Source of the DNA: Anaerohalosphaeraceae bacterium
Lineage (GTDB): Bacteria; Planctomycetota; Phycisphaerae; Sedimentisphaerales; Anaerohalosphaeraceae
Assembly (NCBI GenBank): GCA_050309605.1
Contig: JBNRMN010000022.1
Span: 1 to 19,659, forward strand
DNA length: 19,659 bases
Direction of reading: 5' to 3'
In this document: piece by piece, positions 1 to 17,545 of the stretch
Position numbering within the stretch: position 1 is the stretch's first letter
Layout: each line of letters begins with the position of its first letter
Made by a program: the position numbers and the translations under genes
Notes under the pieces: generated by a model
The model's database searches: none
What the model saw: only the letters and a program-made list of their open reading frames with translations
What the model was told of the DNA's origin: nothing

Positions 1-24
1 CGCCGCGCTGGTGTGTCGCGTTGG

Positions 25-211
25 TGCCGCCCCGAAGGGGCGGCATATCCCAGCCCAGGGCAACGCCCTGGGTTAGATCGGCCACACGCCATACGCCTCG
101 ACGCTCTGAAAGAGCAGCCTATATTGCTGCCCTTACAGGGCGACCGGCGACCGGCGAACTCATGACCCAGCCCGTTGTGCTGGGCTAAGGTATCATTGCC
201 CTTTCAGGGCA
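25..211. repeat. REP/BIME-like composite palindromic element (six short hairpins in mirror arrangement)
   Basis: Hairpins TGCCGCCCC-GAA-GGGGCGGCA (25-45), CCCAGGGC-AAC-GCCCTGGG (54-72) and GCTCT-GAA-AGAGC (103-115) are followed by their mirror counterparts GCCCT-TAC-AGGGC (129-141), CCCAGC-n7-GCTGGG (166-184) and TGCCCT-TTC-AGGGCA (197-211). No credible CDS covers the region. Confidence 0.75.
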
Positions 212-253
212 TTTTTGACCCTTCAGGCCGAGTCGAATTGTTCTTGTTTTATA

Positions 254-295
254 CCCCCTCCCCCCTTCGGGGTACTCCCCCTTGACAGGGGGAGA
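254..295. repeat. Double-hairpin REP-like element (C-rich/G-rich type)
   Basis: CCCC-TTC-GGGG (262-272) is followed by the perfect 8-bp stem CTCCCCCT-TGAC-AGGGGGAG (275-294). Confidence 0.55.
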
Positions 296-304
296 GTTTA
301 CATT

Positions 305-395
305 AGCCGAGCGGCGCAAGCGGCCGGATAATGCCGCGTCTTGCAAAACGTCCCATCTATCCGCATCCCTATCGGGCGGCTTGCGCCGCCGCGCT
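305..395. repeat. Inverted REP doublet built on a GCGGC-GCAA-GCCGC hairpin
   Basis: 305-328 AGCCGAGCGGCGCAAGCGGCCGGA matches the reverse complement of 372-395 (AGCGCGGCGGCGCAAGCCGCCCGA) at 19/24 positions. The arms are separated by a 43-bp spacer. Confidence 0.65.
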
Positions 396-464
396 GTTGT
401 GCCGCGCTGGTGCGCGCGCTGTTGTGCCGCGCTGGTGCGCGCGCTGTTGTGTCGCGCTGTTGCC
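390..464. repeat. Tandem repeat, 25-bp unit x3
   Basis: CGCGCTGTTGTGCCGCGCTGGTGCG occurs identically at 390-414 and 415-439. A third copy at 440-464 has 3 mismatches and runs into the hairpin GCCGTCCC-GAA-GGGACGGC (462-480). Confidence 0.9.
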
Positions 465-548
465 GTCCCGAAGGGACGGCCGGTCATTGACTTACCTAAA
501 CGAAAGGGTCAAACTGAAAAAAAACCGGTGAACGGTTACAAAAATCTT

Positions 549-576
549 TTGAAAAGTTCCCTTGAGCCTTTAGAAT
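549..576 (+). promoter_or_regulatory. Putative sigma70-type promoter of the peptidase/symporter/pepP operon
   Basis: TTGAAA (549-554), 16-bp spacer, TAGAAT (571-576), with A-tracts upstream. RBS AGGAG lies at 631-635, ahead of ATG 643. Confidence 0.5.
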
Positions 577-642
577 CCAAAAGACCTCTTTGTCGGCAGA
601 GGCACTGAGCGACCTTTGTTTTTAGAGATAAGGAGATAGACT

Positions 643-2175
643 ATGGCAAGGTATGTGGTTTGTGCGGTCATTTTATGCAGCGGAGCGTCTATACCCTTTT
701 GTTTCGGTGAACCGTTATTGCCTCCTGTTACATCGCCGCCAGCGGCACTGACCCTGGACCCGTTTTACGCCAAGTATCTTGATTGCGGCGGCATCTCCGT
801 GATCGGTTCGGACGCGGTGTCGGATGAGGCCTTTTATCGACTGAAGGAATTGCTGGACAAGATGCTCGAAAATCGCCCTGACGTGCGGCGACAATTGGCC
901 CAGGACGGCAATCGTTTTATCATCATCGGCCGCACTGAGCAGGTCACCGATGTCCCTGATTATGCCCATATGGAGCCGAAGGCCTTTTGGAATGAGCGGG
1001 CGCGGGGTTTTGGAGGACGAACGACCAGCGTCGGCGAGGAGAATTTGCTGTCGCTGCCTGAAGATCGCTACGAGGATGAAAGTATCTTCATTCATGAACT
1101 GGCGCATTCCATTCATTTTGTTTTGCGGCGTCTGGAGCCGGATTTTCAAGCGACGCTGGATCGGCTCTACCAGAACGCAATGGACAAGGGATTATATCAA
1201 TACGATTACGCCTCCACCAATGCCAGTGAGTATTGGGCCGAGGCGGTGCAGGGTTTCTTTGACGCCAATCGCGCCAACAACTGGAATCATAACCACATCA
1301 GTACGCGCGAACAGTTGACAGAGTATGATCCGGACATTGTCGAGCTGGTACGAAAAACATTTCGCATCACGCCGGAGAACGACTGGCGTTATGAGCCGCT
1401 TGCTGTGCAGCCGTCGGTTCATCCCACACCCGACCGTTTCGCGGAGGCTCGGACGCTGCCGAAATACGTCTGGTGTCGCGGTTTTTCCATCTTCGGCACG
1501 GCGGAGGTGTCGGACGAGGCGTTGCTGTGTGTCGATCAGACGATTCGCAATCTATTCCGTTATCGCCACGATATCCTCAAGGCGCTGATTGATGCAGATG
1601 TGGCGGTGGTGGTCTATGCCGACGATGAATTGCCGTCAGACGTGCCGGTTCATAAGACACTGTCCGTTGCGTCTTTTCTTCAGCACGAAGAGCCGCCGGC
1701 CGCGGTCGCACTGCCGACCTCATTGCGGTTGGGCGTTGCGCAATCGGAAATAGTGAATGCCGACGGCTGCAATCCGCTGATCGGGCGGCTTGCTTTGGCG
1801 GCGTATTTATACACCGGGCTGCGTCCGATTGATCCGACATTTGATCAGCGCCGGCAGAAACAGCAGTATGAAATCGGGCTGGAACGGATGGATATCCGTT
1901 TTGATCGTCGGGTGCAGGCATTATACACAGCGGCCGTACAGAAAGGCGTATGGGCCGCGCCGGCGGCGGATAATCGGTTCGATTATTTTGCGCAGGGCGT
2001 GCAGGCGTTCTTTGACGCCCATCCTGTTGTCAATGGGCAAGGCCGCGCGATCCCTGCCCGTCAGCGGCTCAAACAGGTTGACCCGGAGCTGGCGGCACTG
2101 GTCGGCGATCTCTTCAAGCATCCCGAACGGTACGATTGGCGACATACCCCGTGCAGTCAAATCGCCGGCCCGTAA
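643..2175 (+). CDS. Secreted zinc-dependent metallopeptidase (HEXXH...EYWAE, anthrax-lethal-factor/MtfA-like fold), internally duplicated two-domain protein
   Basis: 510-aa ORF with RBS AGGAG and a hydrophobic N-terminal signal peptide. It contains HELAH (1093-1107) and downstream YASTNASEYWAE. The C-terminal half repeats the N-terminal domain. Confidence 0.8.
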   Translation: MARYVVCAVILCSGASIPFCFGEPLLPPVTSPPAALTLDPFYAKYLDCGGISVIGSDAVSDEAFYRLKELLDKMLENRPDVRRQLAQDGNRFIIIGRTEQVTDVPDYAHMEPKAFWNERARGFGGRTTSVGEENLLSLPEDRYEDESIFIHELAHSIHFVLRRLEPDFQATLDRLYQNAMDKGLYQYDYASTNASEYWAEAVQGFFDANRANNWNHNHISTREQLTEYDPDIVELVRKTFRITPENDWRYEPLAVQPSVHPTPDRFAEARTLPKYVWCRGFSIFGTAEVSDEALLCVDQTIRNLFRYRHDILKALIDADVAVVVYADDELPSDVPVHKTLSVASFLQHEEPPAAVALPTSLRLGVAQSEIVNADGCNPLIGRLALAAYLYTGLRPIDPTFDQRRQKQQYEIGLERMDIRFDRRVQALYTAAVQKGVWAAPAADNRFDYFAQGVQAFFDAHPVVNGQGRAIPARQRLKQVDPELAALVGDLFKHPERYDWRHTPCSQIAGP

Positions 2176-2214
2176 ACCGACGAACAACACAACAAGTTCA
2201 AGCGGAGTGTGCAA

Positions 2215-3975
2215 ATGATGTATCTTGTAGCGATCCTGGTCTATTTGCTGCTGCTGGTGGGAATCGGCGTCTGTAAATCGCGTCAGGTCAGGACCGAAGC
2301 GGATTTCGCCGTGGCCGGTCGTACCCTCTCGCCTTGGGTGATGGTCTGTACGATGCTGGCGGTCTGGATCGGCACCGGCTCGATCGTCGGCAATGCCGAA
2401 CAGACATACCATACAGGGATGGCGGCGCTGATCATTCCCGCAGGGACGTTTTTCGGGATGATAGTGCTGTCGTTTATTGCGTCGCGCGCTCGAAACATTG
2501 AGGCGTCTTCCGTGCCGGAGATCATTGGGCGGCGGTACGGCCGCACGGCGCGCTTGCTGGCGGTTGCGGCGCTGGTGACGGCGTATATGGTCATTGTCAG
2601 CTATCAGTTCAACGCCGGCGGGGCGGTGCTGGAAGTGATTGCCGGCGACAAAGAACCCGTGGCGCTGAAGCGTGAGGATACCCTGACACGCCGACAGTTA
2701 ACACGCGGTCGTGTGGTTTATACGCCGCCGAGGGACTGGACGGGGACGGTTCAATTGGCCGCGGCTTCGTTGACCGAGCCGGACAAGCCGGTTGTCTATA
2801 CGATACACGTCGTGCCGGATGAACACATCTTTAATGCGGTTCAGTCCGCCTTGCAGACAGAGAACACCCTGGCCATTCGAAAAAATAACACCGCCCGTGT
2901 TCGCTATGACTTTCAAAACGCTGCTGCGATGTACAAGCTGGCTTCAACAGCGGACATCGGCGAGGTGATGCTGGTTGAGCCGCGGCTGACCGCGGGGCGT
3001 GCGACCATTATCGCGGCGGCTTTTATCCTGGCCTATACAATGCTGGCCGGGCTGCTGAGTCTGGCCTATACCGATATTATTACCGGATCGCTGATTACCG
3101 TTTCGATGCTGGCGGCGTTTCCGGTGCTGCTGTATCAGGCCGGCGGGTTTTCGGGGATGGCCGAGGCGTTTGCCGCGATGCAGGACAAAACTGAACATAT
3201 GCAGTTTTGGGGGGTCTATTCACCGGTGCAGTTGGTGAATTACCTGCTGCCGGTGTTTTTGCTGATTCTCGGCGATGCCAATCAATATCAGCGAATTTTC
3301 GCCAGTCGCAACGCGCGCGGCGCCAAGCAGGCCGTGACGACGATGATTTTTGTTGCGCTGGCGATTGAACTGCTGATTATAGCCAACGCCTGGATTGCGT
3401 CCAGTATGACGCCCGATCCGGAAAACGGCAAATATATCCTCATCTATGCGGCTAAACATTTTATGCCGCCGATATTGGGCGTTGTCTTTCTGGTAACAGT
3501 GGTCGGGATTATCGTCTCAACGGCCAATTCGTTTTTGCTGATTCCGTCGATTGCCTTCATCAAAGACATCTATCAGACGCACATCAATCCCAACGCCACG
3601 GAAAAGCATACGGTTTTTCTGAATCGTGTGATGATTCTCGTGTTCGGCGTGATTGCGTACGGAGTGTCGCTGGCGTTTTCCGAATCGACTGGGTTTTTCG
3701 AAAAAGCCCTTTATGCTTATACCATTTACGGCGCGGCCATTACGCCGAGTCTGGTGGCGGCAATCGTGTGGAAAAAGGCCACGCCGCAGGCCGCAATGGC
3801 CTCGATTGCCGTTGGGATTGCCATCCCGCTGTTGTGGGGCGAGGTGATTCGTCCGCACTTGTCCGGCTGGGCGGGCCAACTGGATGCCGTGCTGCCGGCG
3901 ATTGCGGTGTCCGTGCTGGCTCTGGTGGGTGTCAGTTACCTGACCGATTCTAAAAAATCCGAAACAACGGGGTGA
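2215..3975 (+). CDS. Sodium:solute symporter (SSS/PutP family) with a large soluble loop insertion
   Basis: Many TM segments and SSS motifs DFAVAGRTL, WIGTGSIVG, SVPEIIGRRYG, GLLSLAYTD, YQRIFASR and IVSTANSFLL. GGAG at 2204-2207 favours ATG 2215 over the GTG at 2209. Confidence 0.9.
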   Translation: MMYLVAILVYLLLLVGIGVCKSRQVRTEADFAVAGRTLSPWVMVCTMLAVWIGTGSIVGNAEQTYHTGMAALIIPAGTFFGMIVLSFIASRARNIEASSVPEIIGRRYGRTARLLAVAALVTAYMVIVSYQFNAGGAVLEVIAGDKEPVALKREDTLTRRQLTRGRVVYTPPRDWTGTVQLAAASLTEPDKPVVYTIHVVPDEHIFNAVQSALQTENTLAIRKNNTARVRYDFQNAAAMYKLASTADIGEVMLVEPRLTAGRATIIAAAFILAYTMLAGLLSLAYTDIITGSLITVSMLAAFPVLLYQAGGFSGMAEAFAAMQDKTEHMQFWGVYSPVQLVNYLLPVFLLILGDANQYQRIFASRNARGAKQAVTTMIFVALAIELLIIANAWIASSMTPDPENGKYILIYAAKHFMPPILGVVFLVTVVGIIVSTANSFLLIPSIAFIKDIYQTHINPNATEKHTVFLNRVMILVFGVIAYGVSLAFSESTGFFEKALYAYTIYGAAITPSLVAAIVWKKATPQAAMASIAVGIAIPLLWGEVIRPHLSGWAGQLDAVLPAIAVSVLALVGVSYLTDSKKSETTG

Positions 3976-3985
3976 CAGGACCGCT

Positions 3986-5407
3986 ATGTTTAGTACAGAA
4001 ACATACAGTCAGCGGCGTCAAATGCTGCGCCAGCGGTTGGCGGGGCAATCGGGGCTGCTTATTTTTCCGGGCAATGAATTATGCCCGATGAACTATGCCG
4101 ACAACCCCTTTCCGTTCCGTCAGGACAGCACGTTTTTGTATTACTTCGGGCTGGATGTACCGTCGCTGGCGGCGGTGATGGACTTGGACGCCGGCACTGA
4201 GACGCTCTACGGGGATGACCCGACGGTCGAACAGGTGGTCTGGACAGGTCCTCAGTCGGCGCTTGGCGAACGTGCCGCCCGATGCGGCCTGACGCAGACG
4301 GCGTGTCGAGAAGCCTTTGGCCAAGCCGTTCGAACTGCCTGTCGGCAGGGGCGCCCCATTCATCTCCTGCCGCCGTATCAGGCGCAGCACCTGCTGGCGC
4401 TTTCAGAGCTATTGGAAGTCCCGTGCGCTCAGGTGCACCGTCACGTCAGCGAGCCGTTTGTCCGGGCGGTGATTGCAATGCGTTCGGTCAAGTCCGCAGA
4501 GGAAATTGAGCAGATTCGTCAGGCCGTTGAGATCACGCGGCGGATGCATCAGACAGCAATGGAGCATACCGCCCCGAAAGTGACTGAAAATGAGGTGGTC
4601 GCCGCGATGGAACAGGTGGTGATTGCCCGCCACGGGCGGATGGCGTTTCCGGTGATTTTTACGATTCACGGCCAGTTTCTGCACAATCATTACAGCGCCA
4701 ATCCGCTGGGCGAAGGCGATTTGGTGATCAATGACTCAGGCGCAGAGAATGCGATGCATTATGCCGCTGATATTACACGGACGCTGCCGGCAGCGGGGCG
4801 GTTCACGCCGCGACAAAGAGATATTTACGAACTGGTGCTGTCGGCACTGAATCAGTCCCTTGACGCCGTCGCGCCCGGCGTGTTGTTTCGCGATATTCAT
4901 TTGGCCGCCTGCTGCATCCTGGCCGAAGGTCTCAAGTCGCTGGGGCTGATGAAGGGCAATGTCGAGGACGCCGTCGCGTGCGGCGCCCATGCGCTGTTTT
5001 TTCCGTGCGGCCTGGGGCATATGCTGGGGCTGGACGTGCATGATATGGAGGGATTGAATGAAGATTGGGTCGGTTATACCGACACGATTCAGCGCAGCGA
5101 GCAATTTGGCCTGCGGTCGCTGCGACTGGCCAAAACACTGGAGCCGGGGTTTGTGCTGACCGTCGAGCCGGGGGTGTATTTCATTCCCGCCCTGATTGAA
5201 CACTGGGAAAAAACACACCAATTGATAGATTACGTAAACTATAATAAAGTGCGAGAATATCTTGATTTTGGCGGTATTCGTATTGAGGATAATGTCCTTG
5301 TTACGTCCGACGGGCAGGATGTGCTAAGCTGTGCCATTCCCAAAAGCAGGCAAGAGGTCGAAATGCTTACCGGTAACCGGACAAACAAAGGCAATCGCGT
5401 TGGTTAG
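3986..5407 (+). CDS. pepP: Xaa-Pro aminopeptidase (aminopeptidase P, family M24B)
   Basis: The N-terminal AMP_N motif PFRQDSTFLYYFG and the metal-ligand motifs DSGAE...YAADITRT, GHMLGLDVHD, TVEPG and GIRIEDN are present. There is no signal peptide. The start is 10 bp after the symporter stop. Confidence 0.92.
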   Translation: MFSTETYSQRRQMLRQRLAGQSGLLIFPGNELCPMNYADNPFPFRQDSTFLYYFGLDVPSLAAVMDLDAGTETLYGDDPTVEQVVWTGPQSALGERAARCGLTQTACREAFGQAVRTACRQGRPIHLLPPYQAQHLLALSELLEVPCAQVHRHVSEPFVRAVIAMRSVKSAEEIEQIRQAVEITRRMHQTAMEHTAPKVTENEVVAAMEQVVIARHGRMAFPVIFTIHGQFLHNHYSANPLGEGDLVINDSGAENAMHYAADITRTLPAAGRFTPRQRDIYELVLSALNQSLDAVAPGVLFRDIHLAACCILAEGLKSLGLMKGNVEDAVACGAHALFFPCGLGHMLGLDVHDMEGLNEDWVGYTDTIQRSEQFGLRSLRLAKTLEPGFVLTVEPGVYFIPALIEHWEKTHQLIDYVNYNKVREYLDFGGIRIEDNVLVTSDGQDVLSCAIPKSRQEVEMLTGNRTNKGNRVG

Positions 5408-5490
5408 AATGATTGAAACTTGTTTCTAATAAAGGACTTAAGAAAATTTGCAAAGTTAAGAAAAAAAATTTGATATTTTGATATAGGGTA

Positions 5491-5519
5491 TTGACTTGGT
5501 TTGGAATCCGTGATATAGT
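5491..5519 (+). promoter_or_regulatory. Near-consensus sigma70 promoter with extended -10 for the PEP-CTERM gene
   Basis: TTGACT (5491-5496), 17-bp spacer ending in TGa, TATAGT (5514-5519). The upstream region is AT-rich. RBS AGAGGA lies at 5569-5574. Confidence 0.75.
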
Positions 5520-5581
5520 AGATACACTTGTGGTAACGTGTCCGGAGAAAACAGTTAACTTAATTAAAAGAGGATGGGAAG

Positions 5582-6196
5582 ATGAACACACGGCAAATGT
5601 TGGGAGTAGCTCTTGTACTTGCACTGACGGTTTCTGTTCACGCCAATTATGTCAAGAACTTCAGTTTTGAACAGCCGGGTACGGACAAACTCAGTAATTG
5701 GGAGGAAGTTCCGTTTTGGTCCAGTGATGTCATAGCCGCGGATTCGGGTGTGGAATCCGGCTGGCCGGGTTCGACCCACGGCGATTGGGCCGGTTTCCTG
5801 ATGTCCGGCGATCCGTCGGTCTGGCAGTTGACCGGCGCGGTGATTGAAGCCGGCGAGGTTTATACCCTTCAGGTGGACGCCCGCGATAACTGGTCCGAGA
5901 CGACCCCGGCCAAGCTTGGTCTGTTCCTTTATTATGACAACGCCGGGTCCCGAACACCGGTGGCGATGGCCGTTGTGGACCTTCTGGGCGATGGCCAGGA
6001 GCCGTGGGCGACCTATACCCTGACGTTTTCGGCCGATGATATTCCTGCGTCCATCGGCAATCAAATCGGCGTCGAGTTGATTAATTTTTCAGCGACGAAT
6101 TCCTGGATCGGCATTGACAATGTTCGGCTGGTGCCGGAACCGATGACGCTTGCGTTGCTGGGACTGGGTGGGTTGTTCCTTCGCAAACGTCGCTAA
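5582..6196 (+). CDS. PEP-CTERM sorting-domain surface protein (probable beta-sandwich/carbohydrate-binding-like core)
   Basis: Signal peptide ending in VHA, an N-x-SFE-x-P motif at the mature N-terminus, and the C-terminal GIDNVRL-VPEPMTLALLGLGGLFLRKRR (PEP, TM segment, basic tail). Confidence 0.92.
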   Translation: MNTRQMLGVALVLALTVSVHANYVKNFSFEQPGTDKLSNWEEVPFWSSDVIAADSGVESGWPGSTHGDWAGFLMSGDPSVWQLTGAVIEAGEVYTLQVDARDNWSETTPAKLGLFLYYDNAGSRTPVAMAVVDLLGDGQEPWATYTLTFSADDIPASIGNQIGVELINFSATNSWIGIDNVRLVPEPMTLALLGLGGLFLRKRR

Positions 6197-6221
6197 GATT
6201 TCTTGAAATAAACCGGTTTAT

Positions 6222-6253
6222 AAAGACCTCATTCATATGAGTGGGGTCTTTTT
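6222..6253 (+). terminator. Intrinsic terminator between the convergent PEP-CTERM gene and glycan cluster (possibly bidirectional)
   Basis: Stem AAAGACCTCATTC / GAGTGGGGTCTTT (13 bp including 2 G-U pairs) with an ATAT loop, followed by a T-run. It begins 25 bp after TAA 6196. Confidence 0.8.
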
Positions 6254-6298
6254 GTGTTTTAAGAGGGATTGTTGTTTGTGAAACATATCCGCGGACGG

Positions 6299-7162
6299 TT
6301 ATGCTGTATAGCGTCCTGTCGTGATTTCTTTCAGTACGATGCCGCCAGACGATACGTGAACAAGACCGAATCCGATTGGCGCATGATGGAAATTCCAGCA
6401 ACAGGACCGACACACAGTGACGATGCAATCATGGACATTGAATTGTCGCGTTTCAAGATGCTGATGGCCAAAATACATTGCATGGACGCTGTATTTGCTG
6501 ACCAGTCCGCGAAGATACACAGAATCATTTCGTGAAAGAAACATCCGCTTATCTTGTCCCTGCGGTTCAATGGGAATGTGGCCAAAAATTATTTTCGGCA
6601 AATCGTTTTTTGCAAGCTGTTCTTCAAGCCATTCACATTGACCTCGGGGAATAATCTGGTCGGTGCAAAGATGCCCGATATGGTCTGAGCTGATTGCATT
6701 GCAGATTCCTATGAAATGAATCCCCTTGTGTTCAAACGAATAGTAATCCGACTCAAGACCGTTTATTTGAAATGTGTCCGGAAACAATTCACGCAACTGT
6801 TTTTTTTGAGCGACGGATTCATGGTTTCCGGCAATCGGGTACAGCGGGATGTCCATTTTGTCAAGCTCGTCTTTGATAGCAAAAAAATGAAGATCGCCCA
6901 GGACCAAAATAAAATCAGGCCGTTCGCCCTTCGCAAGATGGTTCATCACCTCGATGCAGCGCAAAAATTTGGTTTTACCGTCGCCGCAATGCTCAAGCCC
7001 CTCGCGGACGGATTCTGAGGCGTGAGGATCGGCAATGATACCAAATGAAAAGGAAGCGTTCGGCTCTCGGGCCGAATGGAAAATCGGCATGGACTTCAGT
7101 GCCGGGGTCAAAGACGCCGCCCCCATACTTGAAACCAGATTGATAAACGACCTGCGATTCAT
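6299..7162 (-). CDS. Tat-exported calcineurin-like metallophosphoesterase
   Basis: Motifs ADPH, LGDL, AGNHE, FGH and FGHQH, plus the Tat motif MNRRSFI. AAAGGA upstream supports ATG 7162 rather than TTG 7195. Confidence 0.88.
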   Translation of the reverse strand: MNRRSFINLVSSMGAASLTPALKSMPIFHSAREPNASFSFGIIADPHASESVREGLEHCGDGKTKFLRCIEVMNHLAKGERPDFILVLGDLHFFAIKDELDKMDIPLYPIAGNHESVAQKKQLRELFPDTFQINGLESDYYSFEHKGIHFIGICNAISSDHIGHLCTDQIIPRGQCEWLEEQLAKNDLPKIIFGHIPIEPQGQDKRMFLSRNDSVYLRGLVSKYSVHAMYFGHQHLETRQFNVHDCIVTVCRSCCWNFHHAPIGFGLVHVSSGGIVLKEITTGRYTA

Positions 7163-7229
7163 ACGCAACATCCTTTCCAGAGCACTCTTATTCAAACAGC
7201 ATCTATGCTTCTGTTATATATTTTCATTT

Positions 7230-8837
7230 TTATGTGTCAGGATCAAGGCTGTAATAGGCCATTAACTCGTTTAGTTCCTGCTTCATAGTGCGGATTGGTT
7301 TCTCGTACTCGGGATTTTCATACTCGCTTTTCATTTCCAGCGGGTCTTTTTTCAGATCATAAAATTCCCATTCGCCCTTTCCATAGAAATCAATCAGCTT
7401 GTACCGTTCGTTTCGAATACCCCGATGCCTTGCAACGCGATGAATCCCCTCTTCGTAATACGTGTAAAGAATGCTGCTGCGCCACTCTTCCGGACGCTCG
7501 CCCCTGAGCAGCGGCGCCAATGATTTGCCCTGGACGTGCTCAGGAACCTCGACGCCGGCGGCTTCGAGAAAGGTCGGCGCATAATCGATATTCTGTACCA
7601 TTTCTTCGCATTTGGAGCCGGGGCGTGTCACGCCGGGCCATTTGATGATGAGCGGGTTTCGCAGCGATTCTTCATACATCCATCGTTTGTCATACCAGCC
7701 GTGTTCACCATTATAAAACCCTTGATCCGAACTGTAAACAACAATCGTATTCTTATCAAGGTTGTTTATTTTGAGGTAATCGAGCACCCGGCCGATCGCT
7801 TCGTCCATGGCCTTGACACATCGTATGAAATCTTTGAGATAGGCCTGATATTTCCACCGGAGCAGATCATTGCCCTTTAATTTTTTGGCCTGAAATCGTT
7901 CATTTCGCGGTACGTAATAGGCATCCCATGCTTTCTTTTGTTCCGGAGTCATCCGTCTGAATTCTTCAAGGGTCGCCGGGTCCATGGAATTGGTTTTCGG
8001 GACGGCTTCCAGAATCGCCTTGACCGAAGTGGTCATCACCGGCGGCGTGACCTTGAGATCGGTTGCAATGTTCAGATGATCGCGGATCGTCATTTCCTGC
8101 TCCGACGCGGACGAGGTCCGTCCCTGGTAGTCATCAACGAGGTTGTCAGGCTCCGGAACATCCACCTCGTCAAGCAAGCTGAAATGCCGCGGGTCTGGCA
8201 TCCATGTCCGATGCGGCGCCTTGTGCCAACTGCAAAGAAAGAACGGCCTGGATTTGTCCCGTTTCTTATCCAGCCAGTCGATGGTCAGATCTCCAATGAT
8301 ATCGGTGCAATATCCCTGCTTTCTAACCGGGTCTGAAGAGCCTTTTACAATAAAATCGGGATTGTAATACATCCCCTGGCCCGGCAAGATTTTATAATCA
8401 TCAAATCCGGTTGGCAGAGAGCCTAAATGCCATTTACCTATCGCCGCGGTTTGATACCCTGCATTTTGCAATTCCTTGGCCACGGTCCATTGGTCGGCGT
8501 TGAATTGGTCATGGTTGGACCGGAAACCGTTGATATGGCTGTGTTTTCCGGTCAGAATGGAAGCCCGACTGGGTCCGCAAATGGAATTTCCGACAAAACT
8601 GTTCTCGAAAAGCATCCCCTCGGCAGCCAATCGGTCAATATTGGGGGTAATGTTGTGTTTTACGATGAACTCCTGCATCCTTGACGTATAAGCACCCAGC
8701 GTCTGCAGCGAATGGTCATCGGACAGAATCAAGAGGAAATTCGGCTTTTGAACGGCGGGCAAGGCGCCCGGTAAAATACGAGTGTAGCTGATGCCGGCGG
8801 CGCCGATGCATTTCAAGAATGTGCGACGGTTCATCAT
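7230..8837 (-). CDS. Tat-exported Cys-type sulfatase, N-acetylglucosamine-6-sulfatase-like (S1_11-like)
   Basis: NRRTFLK Tat motif; PNFLLILSDDH; ICGPSRASILTG (CxPxR); GKWHL; HKAPHRTW; SDQGFYNGEHGWYDKRWMYEES. A GGGAG RBS 7 nt upstream supports ATG 8837 over TTG 8951. Confidence 0.9.
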   Translation of the reverse strand: MMNRRTFLKCIGAAGISYTRILPGALPAVQKPNFLLILSDDHSLQTLGAYTSRMQEFIVKHNITPNIDRLAAEGMLFENSFVGNSICGPSRASILTGKHSHINGFRSNHDQFNADQWTVAKELQNAGYQTAAIGKWHLGSLPTGFDDYKILPGQGMYYNPDFIVKGSSDPVRKQGYCTDIIGDLTIDWLDKKRDKSRPFFLCSWHKAPHRTWMPDPRHFSLLDEVDVPEPDNLVDDYQGRTSSASEQEMTIRDHLNIATDLKVTPPVMTTSVKAILEAVPKTNSMDPATLEEFRRMTPEQKKAWDAYYVPRNERFQAKKLKGNDLLRWKYQAYLKDFIRCVKAMDEAIGRVLDYLKINNLDKNTIVVYSSDQGFYNGEHGWYDKRWMYEESLRNPLIIKWPGVTRPGSKCEEMVQNIDYAPTFLEAAGVEVPEHVQGKSLAPLLRGERPEEWRSSILYTYYEEGIHRVARHRGIRNERYKLIDFYGKGEWEFYDLKKDPLEMKSEYENPEYEKPIRTMKQELNELMAYYSLDPDT

Positions 8838-9028
8838 GTTGGCTCTCCCGAAAAAGTCGGACACAGCGACGTCGTTAAAACCCTGAACAATCGTTGACTG
8901 GACGGTTTCAAGTCTGGGCAAAATAGACATTACCGACAATGCCCGCTTCAATTTCCATGACCATATTCTGTGCCACCCATGTAGAACGACGTTGGGTTCC
9001 CAACTGGACTATCTATGTATTTTTATTG

Positions 9029-10396
9029 TCATGGCACCAAAACCTCAGTGTTCAGAGGAATTTCGTCACGAAGCAACTTGCCGGCTTGTCCCGCCAACTG
9101 CAGGTAAAAATCGCTCGGAAGTCCTTGCAGTGTCAGGAATTTTGCCCCACCGGTAGAGGGAGGATTATTGGAAACCTTGAAAATGGCCGTAGCTTCATCG
9201 ACTTCATCAAACATTGCGATATAGAGCATATCAGCACCAGCTTTTTTAATTGCTACCACCTGCGACCAAAGGAATTGACCACCGAGTCGTGGAATATGAT
9301 CAAATCTGCCCCCCATAAGATTGTACCAGCTAAACCCCGGGAAGACGACCGGCATATAATCGATATTATGCTCTTTGGCCCAGGCAATATCCGGCTCCCA
9401 GTATTTTTTGGCGTGGTTCTGAACCCCCGACAGACCACCGAAACGGCCCACACTCCAGGGACTGAGAACATCGGCCATCAGCAGAACGCGGTGGAGATCG
9501 GGATTCTGGAGGGCATCATTATCTTGCTGGCGCCATCCTGTTGCAATTCCAAGCACAATACTGCATCCATCCTTTTTAAATTGTTTAATCAGCGCCTCGC
9601 ACTCCTGAAACCCCGGACGTGGCTTGATTTTATCGTTAAAGCCGACACCCCAGACCGCCACCAAGGGCTTTTCATTGTGGTGTTGATAGGCAGCATCTTC
9701 TGTGATATGCATTTTGTCACGCAGCATACGCCAGTCATCAAACACCTTAATGATATCTTCATTCGGAATCCCGGTAAGGTCATACATAACGGCGTAGGTT
9801 CGTCCATAGCGATTTGCCCCTTCCCTCGCACTGGACAAAACTTTATCCTTGTGATATCGCTTATCTTCATCGCGAAGGCGTTCAGCGAATCGCTGCACAA
9901 ACGCTCCGTCAATGCCATAATCGCGCATCCATTTGAAATGGCGAACCACAGTTTTGCGATTATGCGAACTAAAAACCTTGGCGGGTGTTCCATCCGCGTG
10001 AGTAAAAACAGTGGTATAGAGTTCATCATCATCGTATTCAGAAACATCCGGCCACATATCGACGGCAATATTATTCGGCTCAAAAGGTCTGCCAAGGTCT
10101 TTGGCCCAATGCGTCCAGCCGAGATTTGCGCCATCGCCCGGACAGTTAAACCAGCCCTGGTAACCGGTCATCACTTTGCCTTTCAGCGTACTCGGATCGG
10201 CCGCACGAACGGAAGGTCCCTCATAGGGCCTGAGTACATTTTCACGCTGGGCCGCAACAACCACTGATAGGTGCGACACGCAGATTACCATCAGAATCCG
10301 GAGTCCGATGTTCATGAGTATCGAATTACAGAATCCGACGGCTTTGAAAACAGCACGTCTGATTAATGCCTGACTGAAAGAGTACATACGTATCAA
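9029..10396 (-). CDS. Glycoside hydrolase, GH71/GH99-like TIM barrel
   Basis: Motifs VMTGYQGWF, HFKWMRDYGIDGAFVQRF, YAVMYDL, SPWSVGR, PVVFPGFSW and AMFDEVDE, plus a hydrophobic signal-like segment. The start is uncertain: TTG 10396 overlapping the upstream stop, ATG 10387, or ATG 10315. Confidence 0.82.
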   Translation of the reverse strand: MIRMYSFSQALIRRAVFKAVGFCNSILMNIGLRILMVICVSHLSVVVAAQRENVLRPYEGPSVRAADPSTLKGKVMTGYQGWFNCPGDGANLGWTHWAKDLGRPFEPNNIAVDMWPDVSEYDDDELYTTVFTHADGTPAKVFSSHNRKTVVRHFKWMRDYGIDGAFVQRFAERLRDEDKRYHKDKVLSSAREGANRYGRTYAVMYDLTGIPNEDIIKVFDDWRMLRDKMHITEDAAYQHHNEKPLVAVWGVGFNDKIKPRPGFQECEALIKQFKKDGCSIVLGIATGWRQQDNDALQNPDLHRVLLMADVLSPWSVGRFGGLSGVQNHAKKYWEPDIAWAKEHNIDYMPVVFPGFSWYNLMGGRFDHIPRLGGQFLWSQVVAIKKAGADMLYIAMFDEVDEATAIFKVSNNPPSTGGAKFLTLQGLPSDFYLQLAGQAGKLLRDEIPLNTEVLVP

Positions 10397-12903
10397 TGCC
10401 TCCGAAGTTGCCGAATTTGTTGTTCAATCAAGTTGACCTCTGAGATTTTTTTTGTTCGCGGGTTGACGCGCAGCGTCTTGATCTCGAAAGGCGCCAGAGA
10501 GACCTTTGTTTTTATTGAAAACACAGGTATTGAAAGGATTGCGTTTCTTTTTGTTCCGGTCGGCTCAAAAAGACGTATGATGATGTCATTACCGGATTCA
10601 GCTTTTTTAACCGCAGTTACCTGAATGACCGCGTCATTAAGCACAACAGTCGGCTTGGGCATTTGTCCTGTGCCGGGGGGAAAGTAGGACAGGGCAAAGG
10701 GACGTTCATTTTTCACCAACGCTTCGGTTTCAACGGCATCCAGGCGCTCGCCGAGCGGACCGGCATTGATCCAAAACTGAAACTCTCTAAACCCCTGATC
10801 TATCCGCTCAATAAATCGGTCGTTTGGAATATCGAATTTGCCATCGGCATCGGGATGGGCGGCATAAGCAGGGGACCTCAGGAGCGTTAAGCGTAAAAGA
10901 CCTGATTTGAAATCGGATGCATACGTGCCGTTATTGATACAGGTCAACGCCTTGTTTTCGTTTTCAGATACGACGGCGGACCATTTTTGACAAACCGATT
11001 CATTTCCATTAACCGGCAATGGCTGCCGACCATAGGCGACCTGGCCCAGGTAGTTCTGAGACCTGCCTTTTACCGGGACAGCCAGTTTCAACACGGTGTC
11101 CTTTTCATTCCAGTAAACGCGGAGATGGACCTCAATTTCCGTTCCCGTTTTGGGCAGTTTGTATTGCATGCAGACCCGTGAGTTGCGGTATTTGAAAAAA
11201 GCCTCGACAATACTTCTTACCGGGCCGTCCTCGATGATTCTGATCGGAGCAAGATCACGGCGATGAGCGCCTGAGAATGTTGCGCTTTCGGTGTGTGACA
11301 TAAGCCTGAAAGGATTTGCCTTTCCATGATATCGCGTTTCAAGCATATTCCAGGAATCCAGGTTGTCTTTGAGTGCAAGCAACTGAAAAGAGCCGTTGTG
11401 CAGGTATTCCACCCCGTTGACCCGGTAACTGTCCACCCAACCGGTCTGGCAATTGATGACGACCTGAAGAGGTTCTGTTTTGAAATGAATTTTGCCGTTT
11501 TTGATGTCAAGCAGAGGATCGGGCTTGTGATCAACGAGGACGGGCTTACCGTCAAATCGATTGATCTGCCCGGGCTTTAACGTCGCTCTAAAAGCGATTC
11601 GTTTGCGCCATTCCATCGAGACATTGGACAGTTCTTTTTCGACTTGAGAGGGAATCGGCTTGCCGTTTTGATAGACTTGGATGTCCGCAAACGTGTCTTT
11701 TTTCTTAAAATCGGCCAGATTGAATTCACACTCAATAATTTCAGAGGTCGGCACCGGATGATGATTCAAGACCATAATCGGGATGTTGCCGGCGGAGGCC
11801 TTTTTTTGCCCCGAAGCCATCGCAAAAAATGCTCTGACCTTCAGGCGGGACAAGATTTGCAGGCCGCAGCCGATCTGCTGCAAGGCCTCTTCTTCGACCG
11901 GGCGAATGGATGAACCGGGCAGAATGTCGTGAAACTGAATGGTCATTAGGTGACAGAGGGCCTCTTTCATCAGGTCAACGGGATAGTCCATCAACCCGTT
12001 GGCCATGGCGCTTGTCAGAATTTTCTCTGTGGCGTAATATTCATTTTCCAACAGTCTGTGTTTTTGCTTGATCTGTATTTGAGATGCGTAACATCCGATC
12101 GCCCATGGGTTCAAATCATCCGCATGTTCGGGCAGTCGGCTGCTTTTTTTCTTTAGCTCCTTAAAATAGGATTCCGGCGTCGAATGCCTGATCTTCATTT
12201 CCCGCTGCTCGGCAATAAGCTGATTGACGGCCTGAACGTCCATTTTGGACGGCCCTCCGCCGTGATTGCCGACGCCCCAAAGGATCGCCATCGGATTGCG
12301 TTCAGGGTCGCTGTGGATCCGTTGAGAGATCATGGGAGCGGCTTGGCCAAGAGGCGTATTGTACCAACCGGGGAAACGTGTTGCCGTCACACTGGAGTGG
12401 TCATATCCAATCCACTTAAAATCGTCGGCAGGCAGATCAAGCCACCGCCGGTCCGGCCTGCCAAAAAGATAAGCGTCATACCCGCTTTTGGCCAGAATCT
12501 GAACAAGTCCCCGCGTATGCCCGAAGGGATCAAAGTTAATCGCGGTGGTCGGCTCCACGCCAAAATACTGCTGAAAATACTGTTTGCCCAGGAGGATTTG
12601 CCTGACAAAGGACTCGCCGGACGGCATGTTGCAGTCAGGCTGAAGGTACCAGCCCCCCATGATATGCCATTTGCCCTTCGTGACGAGTTTCTGGATTCGC
12701 TTAAACAGTTCCGGGGCATACTCCTGAATCCACTGGTACAGAATCGCTTCATTGTGATTAAAAATGAAGGTCTCATTCGCTTCACAAAGTTCTGCTGCGG
12801 TTCTAAAGGTGGAGATCGCCTCGGCGGCCCCTTCCGGCCACTGCCACAGCCAGACCGGATCGAGATGCGCGTTACAAATCAGATGAATATCACGTTTGCT
12901 CAT
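10393..12903 (-). CDS. Alpha-mannosidase, family GH38
   Basis: Zn-binding NAHLDPVWLW, nucleophile motif DPFGH, GVGNHGGGP, QFHDILPGS and C-terminal LRLTLLRSP. There is no signal peptide. Confidence 0.93.
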   Translation of the reverse strand: MSKRDIHLICNAHLDPVWLWQWPEGAAEAISTFRTAAELCEANETFIFNHNEAILYQWIQEYAPELFKRIQKLVTKGKWHIMGGWYLQPDCNMPSGESFVRQILLGKQYFQQYFGVEPTTAINFDPFGHTRGLVQILAKSGYDAYLFGRPDRRWLDLPADDFKWIGYDHSSVTATRFPGWYNTPLGQAAPMISQRIHSDPERNPMAILWGVGNHGGGPSKMDVQAVNQLIAEQREMKIRHSTPESYFKELKKKSSRLPEHADDLNPWAIGCYASQIQIKQKHRLLENEYYATEKILTSAMANGLMDYPVDLMKEALCHLMTIQFHDILPGSSIRPVEEEALQQIGCGLQILSRLKVRAFFAMASGQKKASAGNIPIMVLNHHPVPTSEIIECEFNLADFKKKDTFADIQVYQNGKPIPSQVEKELSNVSMEWRKRIAFRATLKPGQINRFDGKPVLVDHKPDPLLDIKNGKIHFKTEPLQVVINCQTGWVDSYRVNGVEYLHNGSFQLLALKDNLDSWNMLETRYHGKANPFRLMSHTESATFSGAHRRDLAPIRIIEDGPVRSIVEAFFKYRNSRVCMQYKLPKTGTEIEVHLRVYWNEKDTVLKLAVPVKGRSQNYLGQVAYGRQPLPVNGNESVCQKWSAVVSENENKALTCINNGTYASDFKSGLLRLTLLRSPAYAAHPDADGKFDIPNDRFIERIDQGFREFQFWINAGPLGERLDAVETEALVKNERPFALSYFPPGTGQMPKPTVVLNDAVIQVTAVKKAESGNDIIIRLFEPTGTKRNAILSIPVFSIKTKVSLAPFEIKTLRVNPRTKKISEVNLIEQQIRQLRRH

Positions 12904-12951
12904 TGAAATACCTTGTTTGCAATTAAGATGTCCGTCGGCACGTTGGCATGC

Positions 12952-14562
12952 TCAGACCAATTTTCTCCTGCTGATTCCTTCAACGTGTTTTGAGCCGGTC
13001 TTGTGCAGCCACTCCAGAAGACATCTGCGGAGTTCTTCTGTTTTCTCCGCATAGTGAGATTTGTTCGGGTTGCTGCCGATCAGGTTATTCATTTCATAAG
13101 GATCGGTATTGAGATCATATAACGCATTTAGAACCGTTGAGGTCTCGGTGCAGGGAATCATCATTTTCCAGCCGTCTTTGACAATCATATAATTGGATTC
13201 AGTATCCCCGCGCCACAGCCATTCGGCCACGGCATACCGGCCCTGCACGCCATCTGTTCCCTCAATCAAACCGCGAAGACTCTCCCCATCGGAGGGGTGT
13301 TTTTCAACGCCCATATAATCAAGAATCGTCGCAAACAAATCTATCAGAGAAACAGGCGCCTCGACTACGGTGTTGCTTTTGATACGGCTGGGGAACCGAA
13401 CAAGCAGCGGCACATGCGCCGATTCTTCATAGAATACATTCTTTTCCCGCATGCCGTGCGCCCCCAGCATTTCGCCATGGTCGCTGGTAAAAATAACCAT
13501 GGTGTTCTCGGTCAAGCCGTGCTTATCCAATGTCTGCAAAATCTCACCGACCCAATCATCGATTTCTTTGACCAATCCGTAATAGTTTGAAATCATATAT
13601 CTGATCTTGTCCTTATCCCGGTATTCCGATAGATGCCGCCTGCCGTTTGTGCCGGCATACGGACTGTTGGACATATCATCATGGATACTGGCCGGGGGAT
13701 CAATCGCTTCCGGCGGATACATTCCGTAGTATGGCCGGGTCGGAGTCATCGGCGAGTGCGGAAAATGAAACGAGCAGGTGATGCTGAACGGTTGATCTTT
13801 GAGACGCTCAATGGCTTCGATGGTTTGCCGCGCCTGAAACGCGGTGATGGAGTGCCGACTCGACATCAGCAATTCACCATGCTGGTCGGGCTGGACAACG
13901 CCAATGTCTTTTGCTTCCAGTTCGGCCGGAGACATTCCATGATAGCGATCAATCGGATCCGTCCGGTAAGGCCGTTGCGAGATATTTTCGTAAAACTCAC
14001 CGATTTTCAGCTCACGTCGGGGAACGTGCTGATTCAGATAATCGCGATACATGTATGTCTGGCCGCCGGGGCCGAAGATCGACAGGCCGTTGCGGGCGGT
14101 TTGCACCGGATTTTGGTAACACTCGGCACGCGCCGACAAACTGTGCCATTTGCCGTAATATTCACAACGATAGCCTTGCTCTGTTAATATCTCATCGAAG
14201 GTCGGTTGGGTCATCAACCCGTCTTGTTCGGGAGTGTATGCATAATCGTTCCGTGTCATGCCGGTGTTTTCCACCGTATGGCCGGTCAGAACAACAGAGC
14301 GCGCAGGACAGCAAACCGCACAGGGCGTATAGGCATGCTTAAAGAAAGCGCCGTGTCGGGCCAACCGGTCAAGGGTCGGTGTTTGCAGGACGGTGTTGCC
14401 GGCGATGCTCAGGGCATCCCAACGCTGCTGATCGGTCATGATAAACAACAGATTCGGTTTCTTTGTTTTTGCCGGTGTGTGGGCTAAAAGAGAAGGGCAG
14501 GCCATCATGCCGCTCACACCCAGTCCTGCCATTTTAACAAAATCTCGCCGTGTTGACTTCAT
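12952..14562 (-). CDS. Tat-exported Cys-type sulfatase
   Basis: MKSTRRDFVK Tat signal; PNLLFIMTDQQR; CCPARSVVLTG (CxPxR); GKWH; FHFPHSP; TSDHGEMLGAHG; LYDLNTDPYE. Confidence 0.92.
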   Translation of the reverse strand: MKSTRRDFVKMAGLGVSGMMACPSLLAHTPAKTKKPNLLFIMTDQQRWDALSIAGNTVLQTPTLDRLARHGAFFKHAYTPCAVCCPARSVVLTGHTVENTGMTRNDYAYTPEQDGLMTQPTFDEILTEQGYRCEYYGKWHSLSARAECYQNPVQTARNGLSIFGPGGQTYMYRDYLNQHVPRRELKIGEFYENISQRPYRTDPIDRYHGMSPAELEAKDIGVVQPDQHGELLMSSRHSITAFQARQTIEAIERLKDQPFSITCSFHFPHSPMTPTRPYYGMYPPEAIDPPASIHDDMSNSPYAGTNGRRHLSEYRDKDKIRYMISNYYGLVKEIDDWVGEILQTLDKHGLTENTMVIFTSDHGEMLGAHGMREKNVFYEESAHVPLLVRFPSRIKSNTVVEAPVSLIDLFATILDYMGVEKHPSDGESLRGLIEGTDGVQGRYAVAEWLWRGDTESNYMIVKDGWKMMIPCTETSTVLNALYDLNTDPYEMNNLIGSNPNKSHYAEKTEELRRCLLEWLHKTGSKHVEGISRRKLV

Positions 14563-14604
14563 AATATAACCTGCTTTCTTAAGGCGTTAAAAAGGATCAC
14601 GCAA

Positions 14605-16149: not shown

Positions 16150-16213
16150 TCAATAATCACAACAGAAGAATATAAGAGCCGCATCGTTTTTCGAATTATG
16201 CATCAAACGAGGC

Positions 16214-17383
16214 TTAGTGGTCTCCAAAGACCTCTTCTTTCAAGATATCCAAATATAAGCAGCCGTAATCCACGTAGGTCTGGCCACCGGTGTAGTATGT
16301 GCCGCTGTCAGAATTATCGGTGCGGCTCGGTGACGCTGTTCCGGCCGTTGCCTCGACCTGGGTGTCTTCATACCATTCGTTAAAACTGGTCACCATGATG
16401 ATATTGTCGGCGGACGGATCCATATTGGGCAGGGCCGCCTGACGGATCATTTCGCGAAAAATGTCGCCTTCCTTTGAGTTTTCTCTATCGCTAAAATAGC
16501 GTGCCCTGCCGGGATGTCCCTGTCGAACCGCCCTGTCGTTGTAGCCGGGGGCAATGGCCGGCATAAAAGCCGCCCCCACCGAATTGGCCGCCAGCCTGGC
16601 TTGCTGATAATTCTGTGCAAGAAACTCGACCGCTTTGTGTGTGCCGCCCAGCGGCTTGATGGATTGGCCGTACACATCATAGACGGTGATGGCATCGAAT
16701 GGTTTGGCCCATTCGGCTTTATAATCTCCCGACCCCTCGATTTGAAAGACATCATCGCCGACCAGATAGATTTCCGGGAACGTTTGACGCATTTCGTTGA
16801 GGACATCATGACCTCGATTGCGGAAGTACACCCGTGACAGATAAACAAAAATGACGGGGCGTCCGTCAATTTTCAAATAACGCGGGTCTTCGAAATAGGT
16901 GTCCTTAAGATAGTCCAAATCAGGGATCCAGGCACGGTAATCGGGGTTTTGAAAACGCCCGAAACGTCCGGTGCTTTCATAGAGAATTGCATATTTTAAT
17001 TGTGAGGCGTTCGGATGCGACAGAATATGATCCTTGAAAACGAGGTCGGTAAAACTGCCCGGCCCCCACCAGCTGACCGCCCAGAATGAAACGCCGCCGC
17101 GAAGGCTTTGTTCAATATGCTCGGCGATCACCTCCGGGTCCCTGGAATCATACAAGCCGCTTTTGGGTTTCTGCGGTTCTTCAAGGAGCAGCCGCATGGC
17201 CTGCTGCCACTGGCGACCCGGCCCTTTATACCAGGGATAATAATAGACACCGACACAAGGCGGTGCTGAGTTCTGCGAAAAACCCCCATCCACAGACCGT
17301 TCCGTTTCAGTCATATGCTTTGCACAAACCCATGAACAGGCCAATCCCCACACAATCAGCAAAAAAAGACATTTTTGTTTCAT
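16214..17383 (-). CDS. Secreted GH99-like endo-alpha-mannosidase/mannanase
   Basis: Sec-type signal peptide; VGVYYYPWY; YDSRDPEVI; VSWWG; PGYND; TSFNEWYEDTQVE, matching the GH99 catalytic SFNEWxE motif. Confidence 0.85.
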   Translation of the reverse strand: MKQKCLFLLIVWGLACSWVCAKHMTETERSVDGGFSQNSAPPCVGVYYYPWYKGPGRQWQQAMRLLLEEPQKPKSGLYDSRDPEVIAEHIEQSLRGGVSFWAVSWWGPGSFTDLVFKDHILSHPNASQLKYAILYESTGRFGRFQNPDYRAWIPDLDYLKDTYFEDPRYLKIDGRPVIFVYLSRVYFRNRGHDVLNEMRQTFPEIYLVGDDVFQIEGSGDYKAEWAKPFDAITVYDVYGQSIKPLGGTHKAVEFLAQNYQQARLAANSVGAAFMPAIAPGYNDRAVRQGHPGRARYFSDRENSKEGDIFREMIRQAALPNMDPSADNIIMVTSFNEWYEDTQVEATAGTASPSRTDNSDSGTYYTGGQTYVDYGCLYLDILKEEVFGDH

Positions 17384-17414
17384 CCGCTTCTCTTTTCTTC
17401 ATTGAGTTGCATAC

Positions 17415-17443
17415 AGAATAGCCGCTTCAACCCCATTGGTCAA
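17415..17443 (-). promoter_or_regulatory. Putative sigma70 promoter ahead of the GH99-like gene
   Basis: On the minus strand: TTGACC (17443-17438), 17-bp spacer, TATTCT (17420-17415), 31 bp before ATG 17383, preceded by an AT-rich stretch. Confidence 0.65.
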
Positions 17444-17545
17444 GCAATAGAAGTTATATTCTTGATGATTGTTTAAAAGTTGTATTTACTTTTCATCATA
17501 AGCAAGAGCCAAATTCTCATATTTCGCGATCCCATGCAGTGCCAA

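Follow-up and report, generated by a model that had tools for sequence, protein, structure and literature searches.

A probable circularly permuted tandem-95-type domain inserted in a periplasmic loop of Phycisphaerae sodium:solute symporters, as supported by sequence comparison and structure prediction

Results

The symporter and its insert

The DNA analyzed here (the window) is a stretch of 19,659 nucleotides from an Anaerohalosphaeraceae bacterium, positions 1-19,659 of contig JBNRMN010000022.1 (assembly GCA_050309605.1). Three closely packed genes lie on its plus strand, encoding a putative secreted protein, P0002 (643-2175), a sodium:solute symporter (SSS) transporter, P0001 (2209-3975), and an M24 peptidase (3986-5407). 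The subject of this report is a 120-residue insert in the symporter, located between its fourth and fifth transmembrane (TM) helices, which sequence comparison supports as a circular permutant of a bacterial tandem-95-type repeat. The features of the symporter gene, with strands taken from AlphaFold2 (AF2) models, are as follows.

2209-3975, plus strand: SSS symporter gene (P0001), 588 aa from GTG, PF00474, 13 predicted TM helices, probable start ATG at 2215
2641-3000, plus strand: insert, 120 aa (aa 145-264), between TM4 and TM5; putative circularly permuted tandem-95/Big_9/Cadherin_5-like domain
2656-2817, plus strand: insert aa 6-59, equivalent of the C-terminal half of the repeat; motif LTxxQLxxGxVVYxPxxDWTG; AF2 strands 14-16, 25-28, 35-43 and 51-58
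2818-2853, plus strand: joining helix predicted by AF2, insert aa 60-71 (204-215 in the full model), in place of the NDAP linker between repeats; variable in length among relatives
2866-2976, plus strand: insert aa 76-112, equivalent of the N-terminal half of the repeat; strands 76-80, 85-87, 97-102 and 108-111
2977-3000, plus strand: stalk EPxLTAxx running into TM5; together with GxK at the TM4 exit, the best-conserved part of the insert

The longest open reading frame of the symporter opens with GTG (VQMMYL...); since homologues begin with M[IV]YL and a database protein of 586 aa is 100% identical, translation probably starts at the ATG at 2215. P0001 scores 105 bits with the Pfam SSF model (cut-off 22.8) and so belongs to the family, the match being split in two, with aa 265-536 in the second piece aligned to profile positions 123-406. 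Its 133 bits with the NCBIfam superfamily model TIGR00813 fall below the cut-off of 184, presumably because the insert splits the match, and the PanF equivalog model gives 72 bits with a cut-off of 328. The AF2 model of the whole protein, built from a 119-sequence alignment (A3), has a mean predicted local distance difference test score (pLDDT) of 81.3, a predicted template modeling score (pTM) of 0.81 and 13 long helices. Foldseek matched this model to 49 chains of the PDB at E<=0.001, the best of them all SSS members: SiaT (5nva, TMt 0.77), CHT1, SGLT1/2, NIS, SMCT1 and vSGLT. P0001 is a LeuT-fold sodium:solute symporter, and its TM9 residues S437, T438 and A439, candidate Na+-site residues, are invariant in the 119 sequences.

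An earlier note on this DNA had described a long soluble insert of ~115 aa (2641-2990) between two TM helices, in a loop that is only a few residues long in typical SSS/PutP proteins and faces outward. This description is borne out, with slightly wider boundaries. The flanking motifs quoted in the note sit at aa 131-144 and 265-281 of P0001, leaving 120 aa between them (2641-3000). In a phmmer alignment with human CHT1 (8j74), query residues 6-145 match chain residues 8-157 and query residues 266-545 match 165-451, so that CHT1 has ~7 residues where P0001 has 120; the loop between TM4 and TM5, which correspond to helices 3 and 4 of the LeuT core, therefore holds an extra domain. Topology was derived from the 13 helices of the AF2 model with the N-terminus outside, as in SiaT/CHT1/SGLT-type SSS families. 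The short loops then carry 12 lysine and arginine residues inside and 3 outside, and the insert falls in the outside loop after the fourth helix. By its position in an outside loop, the N-out topology and the charge counts, the insert is predicted to be periplasmic rather than cytoplasmic.

Relationship to tandem-95 repeats

A phmmer search with the window insert against 1.84 billion representatives returned 11 proteins, the top three of which are giant repeat proteins with 7-15 matching stretches each; a full-length transporter relative (P0127) and two insert-like fragments (P0130 and P0132) were also found. The giant proteins carry 7-14 copies of the Pfam domains Cadherin_3, Cadherin_4, Big_9 and Cadherin_5 and pass the NCBIfam "tandem-95 repeat" model, and the family names proposed in the earlier note (Cadherin_3, Big_9 and tandem-95) are thus those of models passed by the nearest array proteins. 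A profile built from 72 inserts matched the array of one such protein, P0125, once in each period of 110 residues, with positions 6-115 of its 124 aligned and 41-57 bits per full-length copy. The 122-sequence profile gave a like picture on P0125 and on a second array protein, P0126 (109-110-aa period), with up to 64 bits per full-length P0125 copy. Each array match begins ~51 residues past the Pfam domain start (NDAP linker; four Pfam models). Insert family and repeats have in common the motif LTxxQ..G..v.F.P..DWxG, two long C-terminal strands and the motif YRxxxLPxxGxL.

When longer proteins were searched with the insert profile, the 15 matches were divided between SSF transporters and giant proteins with Big_9/Cadherin_5; the absence of any further transporter family among them is weak evidence. 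Among PDB sequences, neither the 72-insert profile (at E<=1) nor P0125 had a match, and a search of the ESM Atlas with the insert gave no usable match. The sole Pfam/NCBIfam match of the window insert, DUF2849 (E 0.092), was taken as chance. Judged by domain models, canonical Big_9/Cadherin_5 domains are present in secreted proteins of the same organisms: beside an operon of this kind in one relative (L078:9437-12946) lies the gene for a 1170-aa secreted protein combining a reprolysin-like M12 domain with Big_9/Cadherin_5, Laminin_G_3 and PA14.

Evidence for circular permutation

For comparison with the insert, the P0125/P0126 arrays were cut at NDAP to give canonical units, and the same arrays were read 51 residues later to give a shifted register. 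On isolated canonical units, the insert profile split in 7/7 cases into two pieces in swapped order (hmmsearch), profile 6-62 matching unit positions 52-109 with 39-47 bits and profile 90-116 matching unit positions 22-52 with 7-10 bits. Profile-profile alignment (hhalign) in the canonical register gave the same picture: insert 6-63 aligned with repeat 52-108 (E 2.4e-14), and insert 80-123 aligned, non-colinearly with the first piece, with repeat 10-57 (E 6.6e-6). In the shifted register, a single colinear alignment of 104 columns was obtained (P 99.3%, E 2.4e-20). The second half alone scored 36.1 (E 4.7e-7), as compared with a mean of 8.1 (sd 1.9, maximum 13.7) for 60 column shuffles and 10.0 for a reversed control. 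The insert is present as a single copy and has neither the canonical N-to-C order of the two halves nor an NDAP-linked head-to-tail array.

Registers of repeat models can be arbitrary, and the ends of the arrays were therefore checked for the true unit. The P0126 array opens with a whole canonical unit (257-365, hmm 1-109), which is a half unit in the shifted register, and the P0125 array closes with a whole canonical unit (774-880), again a half unit in the shifted register. Because the array ends hold whole canonical units, the canonical unit appears to be the real domain, and the insert would therefore be a circular permutant of a tandem-95-type repeat, rotated by ~51 residues, a conclusion that these comparisons support. 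The earlier note had reached the same view from the letters alone, likening the first half of the insert to the C-terminal half of such a repeat and the second half to the N-terminal half, and reading their order as a circular permutation; all three parts of that proposal are sustained by the alignments above.

Predicted structure of the insert

The AF2 model of the insert alone (72-sequence alignment) has a pLDDT of 92.4 and a pTM of 0.84, with eight strands of at least 3 residues, one helix and, close to each end, isolated bridge residues; within the model of the whole protein, 10-residue blocks of the insert score 76-85. The region is thus predicted to form a beta-rich domain rather than to be disordered. 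The strands of the second half are TLAIR, ARVRY, AMYKLA and GEVML, and its family motif is YRxxxLPxxGxLxL. Because the helix (insert aa 60-71) lines up with NPANDAPDAT, the junction from one P0125 unit to the next, it can be understood as a strap leading from the old C-terminus to the old N-terminus. Both ends of the insert would be expected to meet because they run on into the neighboring helices TM4 and TM5. The new ends fall in ...GTLTL/DGVAV..., an apparent strand-turn-strand of the canonical unit, and would exit adjacent to each other; a cut at the tip of such a hairpin would therefore give two adjacent ends, as insertion into a loop needs.

Conservation and selection

In an alignment of 122 sequences (P0001, its 120 best database homologues and P0127), the insert site is occupied by 113-155 residues throughout; the 120 homologues, of 547-621 aa, are 60-100% identical to P0001 and align with 92-100% of its length. 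A scan of species-representative genomes matched 294 stretches, and the locus counts given here and below cover the best 80 of these, nearly all titled Phycisphaerae, Sedimentisphaerales, Anaerohalosphaeraceae or other Planctomycetota metagenome-assembled genomes (the latter probably mislabelled), with one locus 97% identical to the window. The insert was detected by regular expression (114-160 aa) in 71/80 loci and by eye in the remaining 9, and is in frame in 80/80, at identities down to about 55%, with no loss, frameshift or decay. Its presence in the 122 aligned homologues and in all 80 loci argues that it is neither a chance occurrence nor an assembly artefact.

Differences in insert length are confined to the helix region joining the old termini. 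Variants of 154-160 aa have ~25-35 extra helix-like charged residues at the strap (L056:6430-6894, L071:2771-3250), and one insert of only about 100 aa (L041) seems to be without the helix and the strand after it. Column identity averages 39% in the insert by itself (alignment A2) and 64% in the whole protein (A3). Two glycines, G146 and G251, do not vary in A3, and K148, L255, E257, P258 and L260 are conserved there in at least 90% of the sequences; the pattern in A2 is the same. Near-invariance in the insert is found at glycines, at prolines and at both of its ends next to the membrane. In 12 close pairs, the ratio of nonsynonymous to synonymous substitution rates (dN/dS) is 0.08-0.42 for the insert (median 0.23) and 0.025-0.20 for the rest of the protein (median 0.076), the insert being above the core in 10/12; a thirteenth pair was left out because one gene was cut by the end of its locus. 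The insert is under purifying selection.

The precomputed Pfam annotation of every relative lists PF00474 only, the source names being "sodium:solute symporter family protein" or "Na+/proline symporter", the latter a generic name of the source. None of the Pfam, NCBIfam and source annotations examined names the insert domain. The earlier note had considered that the insert might be a common, already annotated feature of the subfamily; common it is, being present in all 80 loci, but annotated it is not.

Gene neighborhood

The other features of the window are as follows.

643-2175, plus strand: P0002, 510 aa, signal-like N-terminus, predicted secreted, two similar halves, one HExxH
3986-5407, plus strand: M24 Xaa-Pro amino/dipeptidase-like gene (AMP_N + Peptidase_M24), beginning 10 nt past the symporter stop
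7230-8951, 12952-14562 and 14605-16149, minus strand: three sulfatases of a glycan-degradation cluster
10393-12903, minus strand: GH38 alpha-mannosidase of the same cluster
9029-10396, 16214-17383 and 17546-19108, minus strand: three GH99-like proteins of the same cluster, two of them below the Pfam cut-off

The best NCBIfam matches of the M24 protein of the window are Xaa-Pro aminopeptidase and dipeptidase, both below cut-off, and it has neither a signal peptide nor a hydrophobic N-terminus. The co-occurrence of insert and peptidase gene, a check proposed in the earlier note, is frequent: in 55 of the 76 informative loci, an M24 gene immediately follows the symporter gene on its strand, while it is nearby in 4 and absent in 17 (4 of the 80 could not be judged). 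An M2/M3-like zinc peptidase with invariant HExxH is found in 46/80 loci, upstream of the symporter in all 46 and adjacent to it in nearly all, and 7 of 8 N-termini of this peptidase read by eye are lipobox-like. P0002-like genes fill the same slot upstream of the symporter in 11/80 loci, those of the clade of the window. P0002 has no Pfam, NCBIfam or PDB sequence match, its first half alone keeps the HExxH (HELAH), and the Atlas offers as a lead the ATLF/Peptidase_M90-like zincins of Planctomycetota and Verrucomicrobiota.

A glycyl radical enzyme is encoded in 24/80 loci and its activase in 14/80. The six glycyl radical enzymes that were tested all score above the cut-off of the NCBIfam equivalog model for trans-4-hydroxy-L-proline dehydratase (HypD), with 1211-1306 bits vs 1100, and the two activases tested have the HypD activase as best match, below its cut-off. 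DPP-IV/S9 peptidases with signal peptides occur in 10/80 loci. The order that recurs in relatives is activase, HypD, M2/M3-like lipoprotein peptidase, symporter with insert, M24 and sometimes DPP-IV/S9 (L021:955-9177, L056:588-11660, L078:788-9261 and similar). By its gene content, the recurring locus looks like one for anaerobic hydroxyproline or prolyl-peptide utilisation in Phycisphaerae, and the context points to prolyl or hydroxyprolyl compounds as probable substrates of the symporter.

In the window, G+C content is 0.54-0.60 over the block of P0002, symporter and M24 (1-5000) and 0.465-0.54 in 5001-19659, a contrast that could reflect gene-level variation or acquisition of the block. The remainder of the window holds a gene for a small protein (5582-6196, plus strand) with an HpiC1-cyclase-like domain (30.9 bits vs a cut-off of 27) and a C-terminal PEP-CTERM motif below cut-off, and the glycan-degradation cluster listed above (6299-19108, minus strand), which also includes a metallophosphoesterase.

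Discussion

Taken jointly, we consider it probable that these symporters carry a permuted cadherin-like domain in a periplasmic loop, import proline, hydroxyproline or dipeptides containing them, and use the domain as a turret with a role intrinsic to the transporter. In this proposal, the outward loop between TM4 and TM5 would have been replaced by a complete, single-copy folded cadherin-like domain that starts in mid-repeat and runs through the old C-terminal half, a 12-residue helix in place of the NDAP linker, and the old N-terminal half. Its likeliest origin would be the capture, in a single event, of one repeat length taken out of register from a tandem array. An out-of-phase fragment of one period is automatically a circular permutant because its two half-domains reassemble, and duplication is the classic route to circular permutation. 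Periplasmic peptidases may release Pro/Hyp-containing dipeptides or free imino acids, which the symporter would import as proline, hydroxyproline or Xaa-Pro/Xaa-Hyp dipeptides; the putative cytoplasmic M24 prolidase-like enzyme would then split Xaa-Pro/Hyp, and HypD, where present, would dehydrate Hyp. The domain itself may form a vestibule or lid, or a contact surface of low specificity for peptides or partners, and is probably not a receptor for one conserved ligand.

Several observations weigh against parts of this account. The window insert matches no cadherin-like model, with limits of E<=10 for Pfam and E<=1 for NCBIfam; in the set of 72 inserts, Cadherin_5 is matched by 23 and Big_9 by 19 at E<=1, with best E values of 7.5e-4 and 4.2e-4, respectively, all below the Pfam cut-offs. 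Foldseek with the insert model, run as is in the manner suggested in the earlier note, found no PDB neighbor at E<=0.001 (best E 0.08, template modeling scores 0.27-0.38), and the cupin, nucleoplasmin and capsid-type sandwiches that head its results (scores up to 0.38) were not accepted as relatives. The beta-sandwich topology and the permutation are thus predicted from sequence and a beta-rich AF2 model, with no PDB neighbor. At ~36 score units with hhalign and 7-10 bits with hmmsearch, the second half is far less strongly supported than the first, and the boundaries of repeat models appear partly conventional, as the NCBIfam tandem-95 model begins ~22 residues after the start of the four Pfam models. 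As for the substrate, P0001 scores only 120.3 bits with the PutP equivalog model TIGR02121 (cut-off 515.5), 17 loci have no M24 gene nearby, the 19.6 kb of the window contain no HypD, M2/M3-like or DPP-IV gene, and we know of no SSS member that carries peptides. The missing structural neighbor, the lack of a cadherin-like Pfam match for the window insert and the modest similarity of the second half would suit a new beta-rich domain that converged on GxxxYxPxxDWxG and YRxxxLPxxG, or two half-domains that do not assemble. We regard such an origin as very unlikely, given that the insert aligns colinearly with natural arrays (104 columns, E 2.4e-20), shares their period and needs no large gaps, that each half is significant alone and that AF2 gives one compact domain (pTM 0.84). 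Foldseek, moreover, depends on the order of structural elements and is expected to miss permutants.

The function of the domain has to be weighed against two other accounts. It might be a docking module, the use that the earlier note had envisaged for the neighboring peptidase. Docking to M24 is implausible and was rejected, since that enzyme is without any signal sequence and should be cytoplasmic, on the other side of the membrane from the insert, and its tie to the symporter is one of gene order and metabolism. Docking could instead hold an enzyme, either periplasmic or anchored to the membrane, where its products are freed at the transporter mouth, the candidates being the upstream M2/M3-like lipoprotein peptidase, P0002 in the clade of the window, or DPP-IV. 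A gene for a secreted or lipid-anchored zinc-peptidase-like protein indeed lies directly upstream in 57/80 loci (M2/M3-like in 46, P0002-like in 11), the slot persisting even where its occupant belongs to another protein family; contact between proteins is a typical task of cadherin-like and Ig-like domains, and the fast-evolving surface (A2) would suit a co-evolving protein interface. The insert is, however, retained in loci with neither peptidase nearby, its conserved residues belong to fold or stalk with no obvious patch, and gene neighborhood is weak evidence for physical contact, so that docking seems unlikely. A complex prediction for the mature M2/M3-like peptidase (A4, 42 rows) and the insert (A5, 42 rows), with L021 as first row, gave a score of 0.00 (mark 0.32) and speaks neither for nor against binding.

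Alternatively, the domain may be a tolerated passenger or spacer, captured once and kept because its removal disturbs TM4-TM5 packing or membrane insertion, with no role in transport or recognition and at most a function as steric shield or in oligomerisation or envelope contact. Selection on the insert is ~3x more relaxed than on the core, its linker varies widely in length, down to the variant of about 100 aa, and its near-invariant residues are only glycines, prolines and the stalk, the alignment having no conserved polar patch suggestive of a ligand site. All this would be expected of a passenger, but dN/dS is well below 1 in 12/12 pairs, AF2, given the family alignment, predicts the fold very confidently, and a useless periplasmic domain of 120 aa would be expected to vanish in some lineage, which it does in none of the 80 loci; we therefore find this account doubtful as well. 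The intrinsic role in the transporter is favored because the domain is kept whatever the neighbors, with stalk and fold residues conserved and the surface variable. A bolder version of the proposal, which we think quite unlikely, would make these proteins the first SSS members with a built-in periplasmic receptor, derived from out-of-register tandem-95 capture, that collects Xaa-Hyp/Xaa-Pro dipeptides freed by the co-encoded lipoprotein peptidase, or holds that enzyme, the symporter having shifted from amino acids to dipeptides and feeding, in Phycisphaerae, an anaerobic prolidase-HypD breakdown of collagen-like or hydroxyproline-rich glycoproteins.

P0001 resembles the known SSS proteins (PutP, SiaT, vSGLT, CHT1 and SGLT1/2) in its SSF match, 13 helices, LeuT fold and N-out topology, and differs from them by its folded domain at the short CHT1 loop and in matching neither the PutP nor the PanF equivalog. 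The extracellular lid of SGLT1/2 is made of several elaborated loops, not of one inserted autonomous domain. To the tandem-95/Big_9/Cadherin repeats of P0125 and P0126, the insert is alike over the whole repeat, including the shared motifs; it differs in being a single copy, with order permuted by about half a repeat and scores below Pfam thresholds, in having a helix for the NDAP linker and in being embedded in a polytopic membrane protein. A precedent for a rotated strand order with the sandwich kept, as proposed for the insert, is offered by type I and type II C2 domains, in which, according to the portion of PMC12051499 that treats them, the A strand shifts to the C-terminus. The C2 permutation moves a single edge strand, in contrast to the insert, which is cut in mid-domain and whose permutation coincides with insertion into a loop of another protein. 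With known HypD loci, a number of relatives of the symporter share the adjoining HypD and activase genes, which the window does not. A term search of the main texts of two HypD papers (PMC6219649 and PMC7077986) met none of the words "transporter", "symporter" and "prolidase", the former containing one unrelated passage on peptidases. Judging from literature listings, we found no description of a cadherin-like, Ig-like or permuted domain in a symporter or transporter loop, nor, among reports on HypD with prolidase or symporter or in Phycisphaerae, one that describes the insert.

The SSS subfamily with an inserted, permuted tandem-95 domain is conserved and unannotated, permutation of Ig-like domains itself being already known. 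It would represent a natural case in which a LeuT-fold transporter has gained an entire domain within a loop and that domain is also circularly permuted, two rare events for which the out-of-phase capture of a repeat-long piece of a tandem array suggests a single, simple route. A common adhesin repeat can, on this evidence, be built into a secondary transporter, and the second extracellular loop (EL2) of SSS proteins appears to be a permissive site that may be useful for engineering. As the domain is recorded in none of the annotations examined, automated pipelines currently overlook it. The family is widespread in anaerobic Phycisphaerae, as indicated by the 294 genome stretches matched, and its occurrence in prolyl-peptidase/HypD loci makes it a candidate for the missing uptake step where hydroxyproline or prolyl peptides are catabolised anaerobically by organisms other than the gut Firmicutes.

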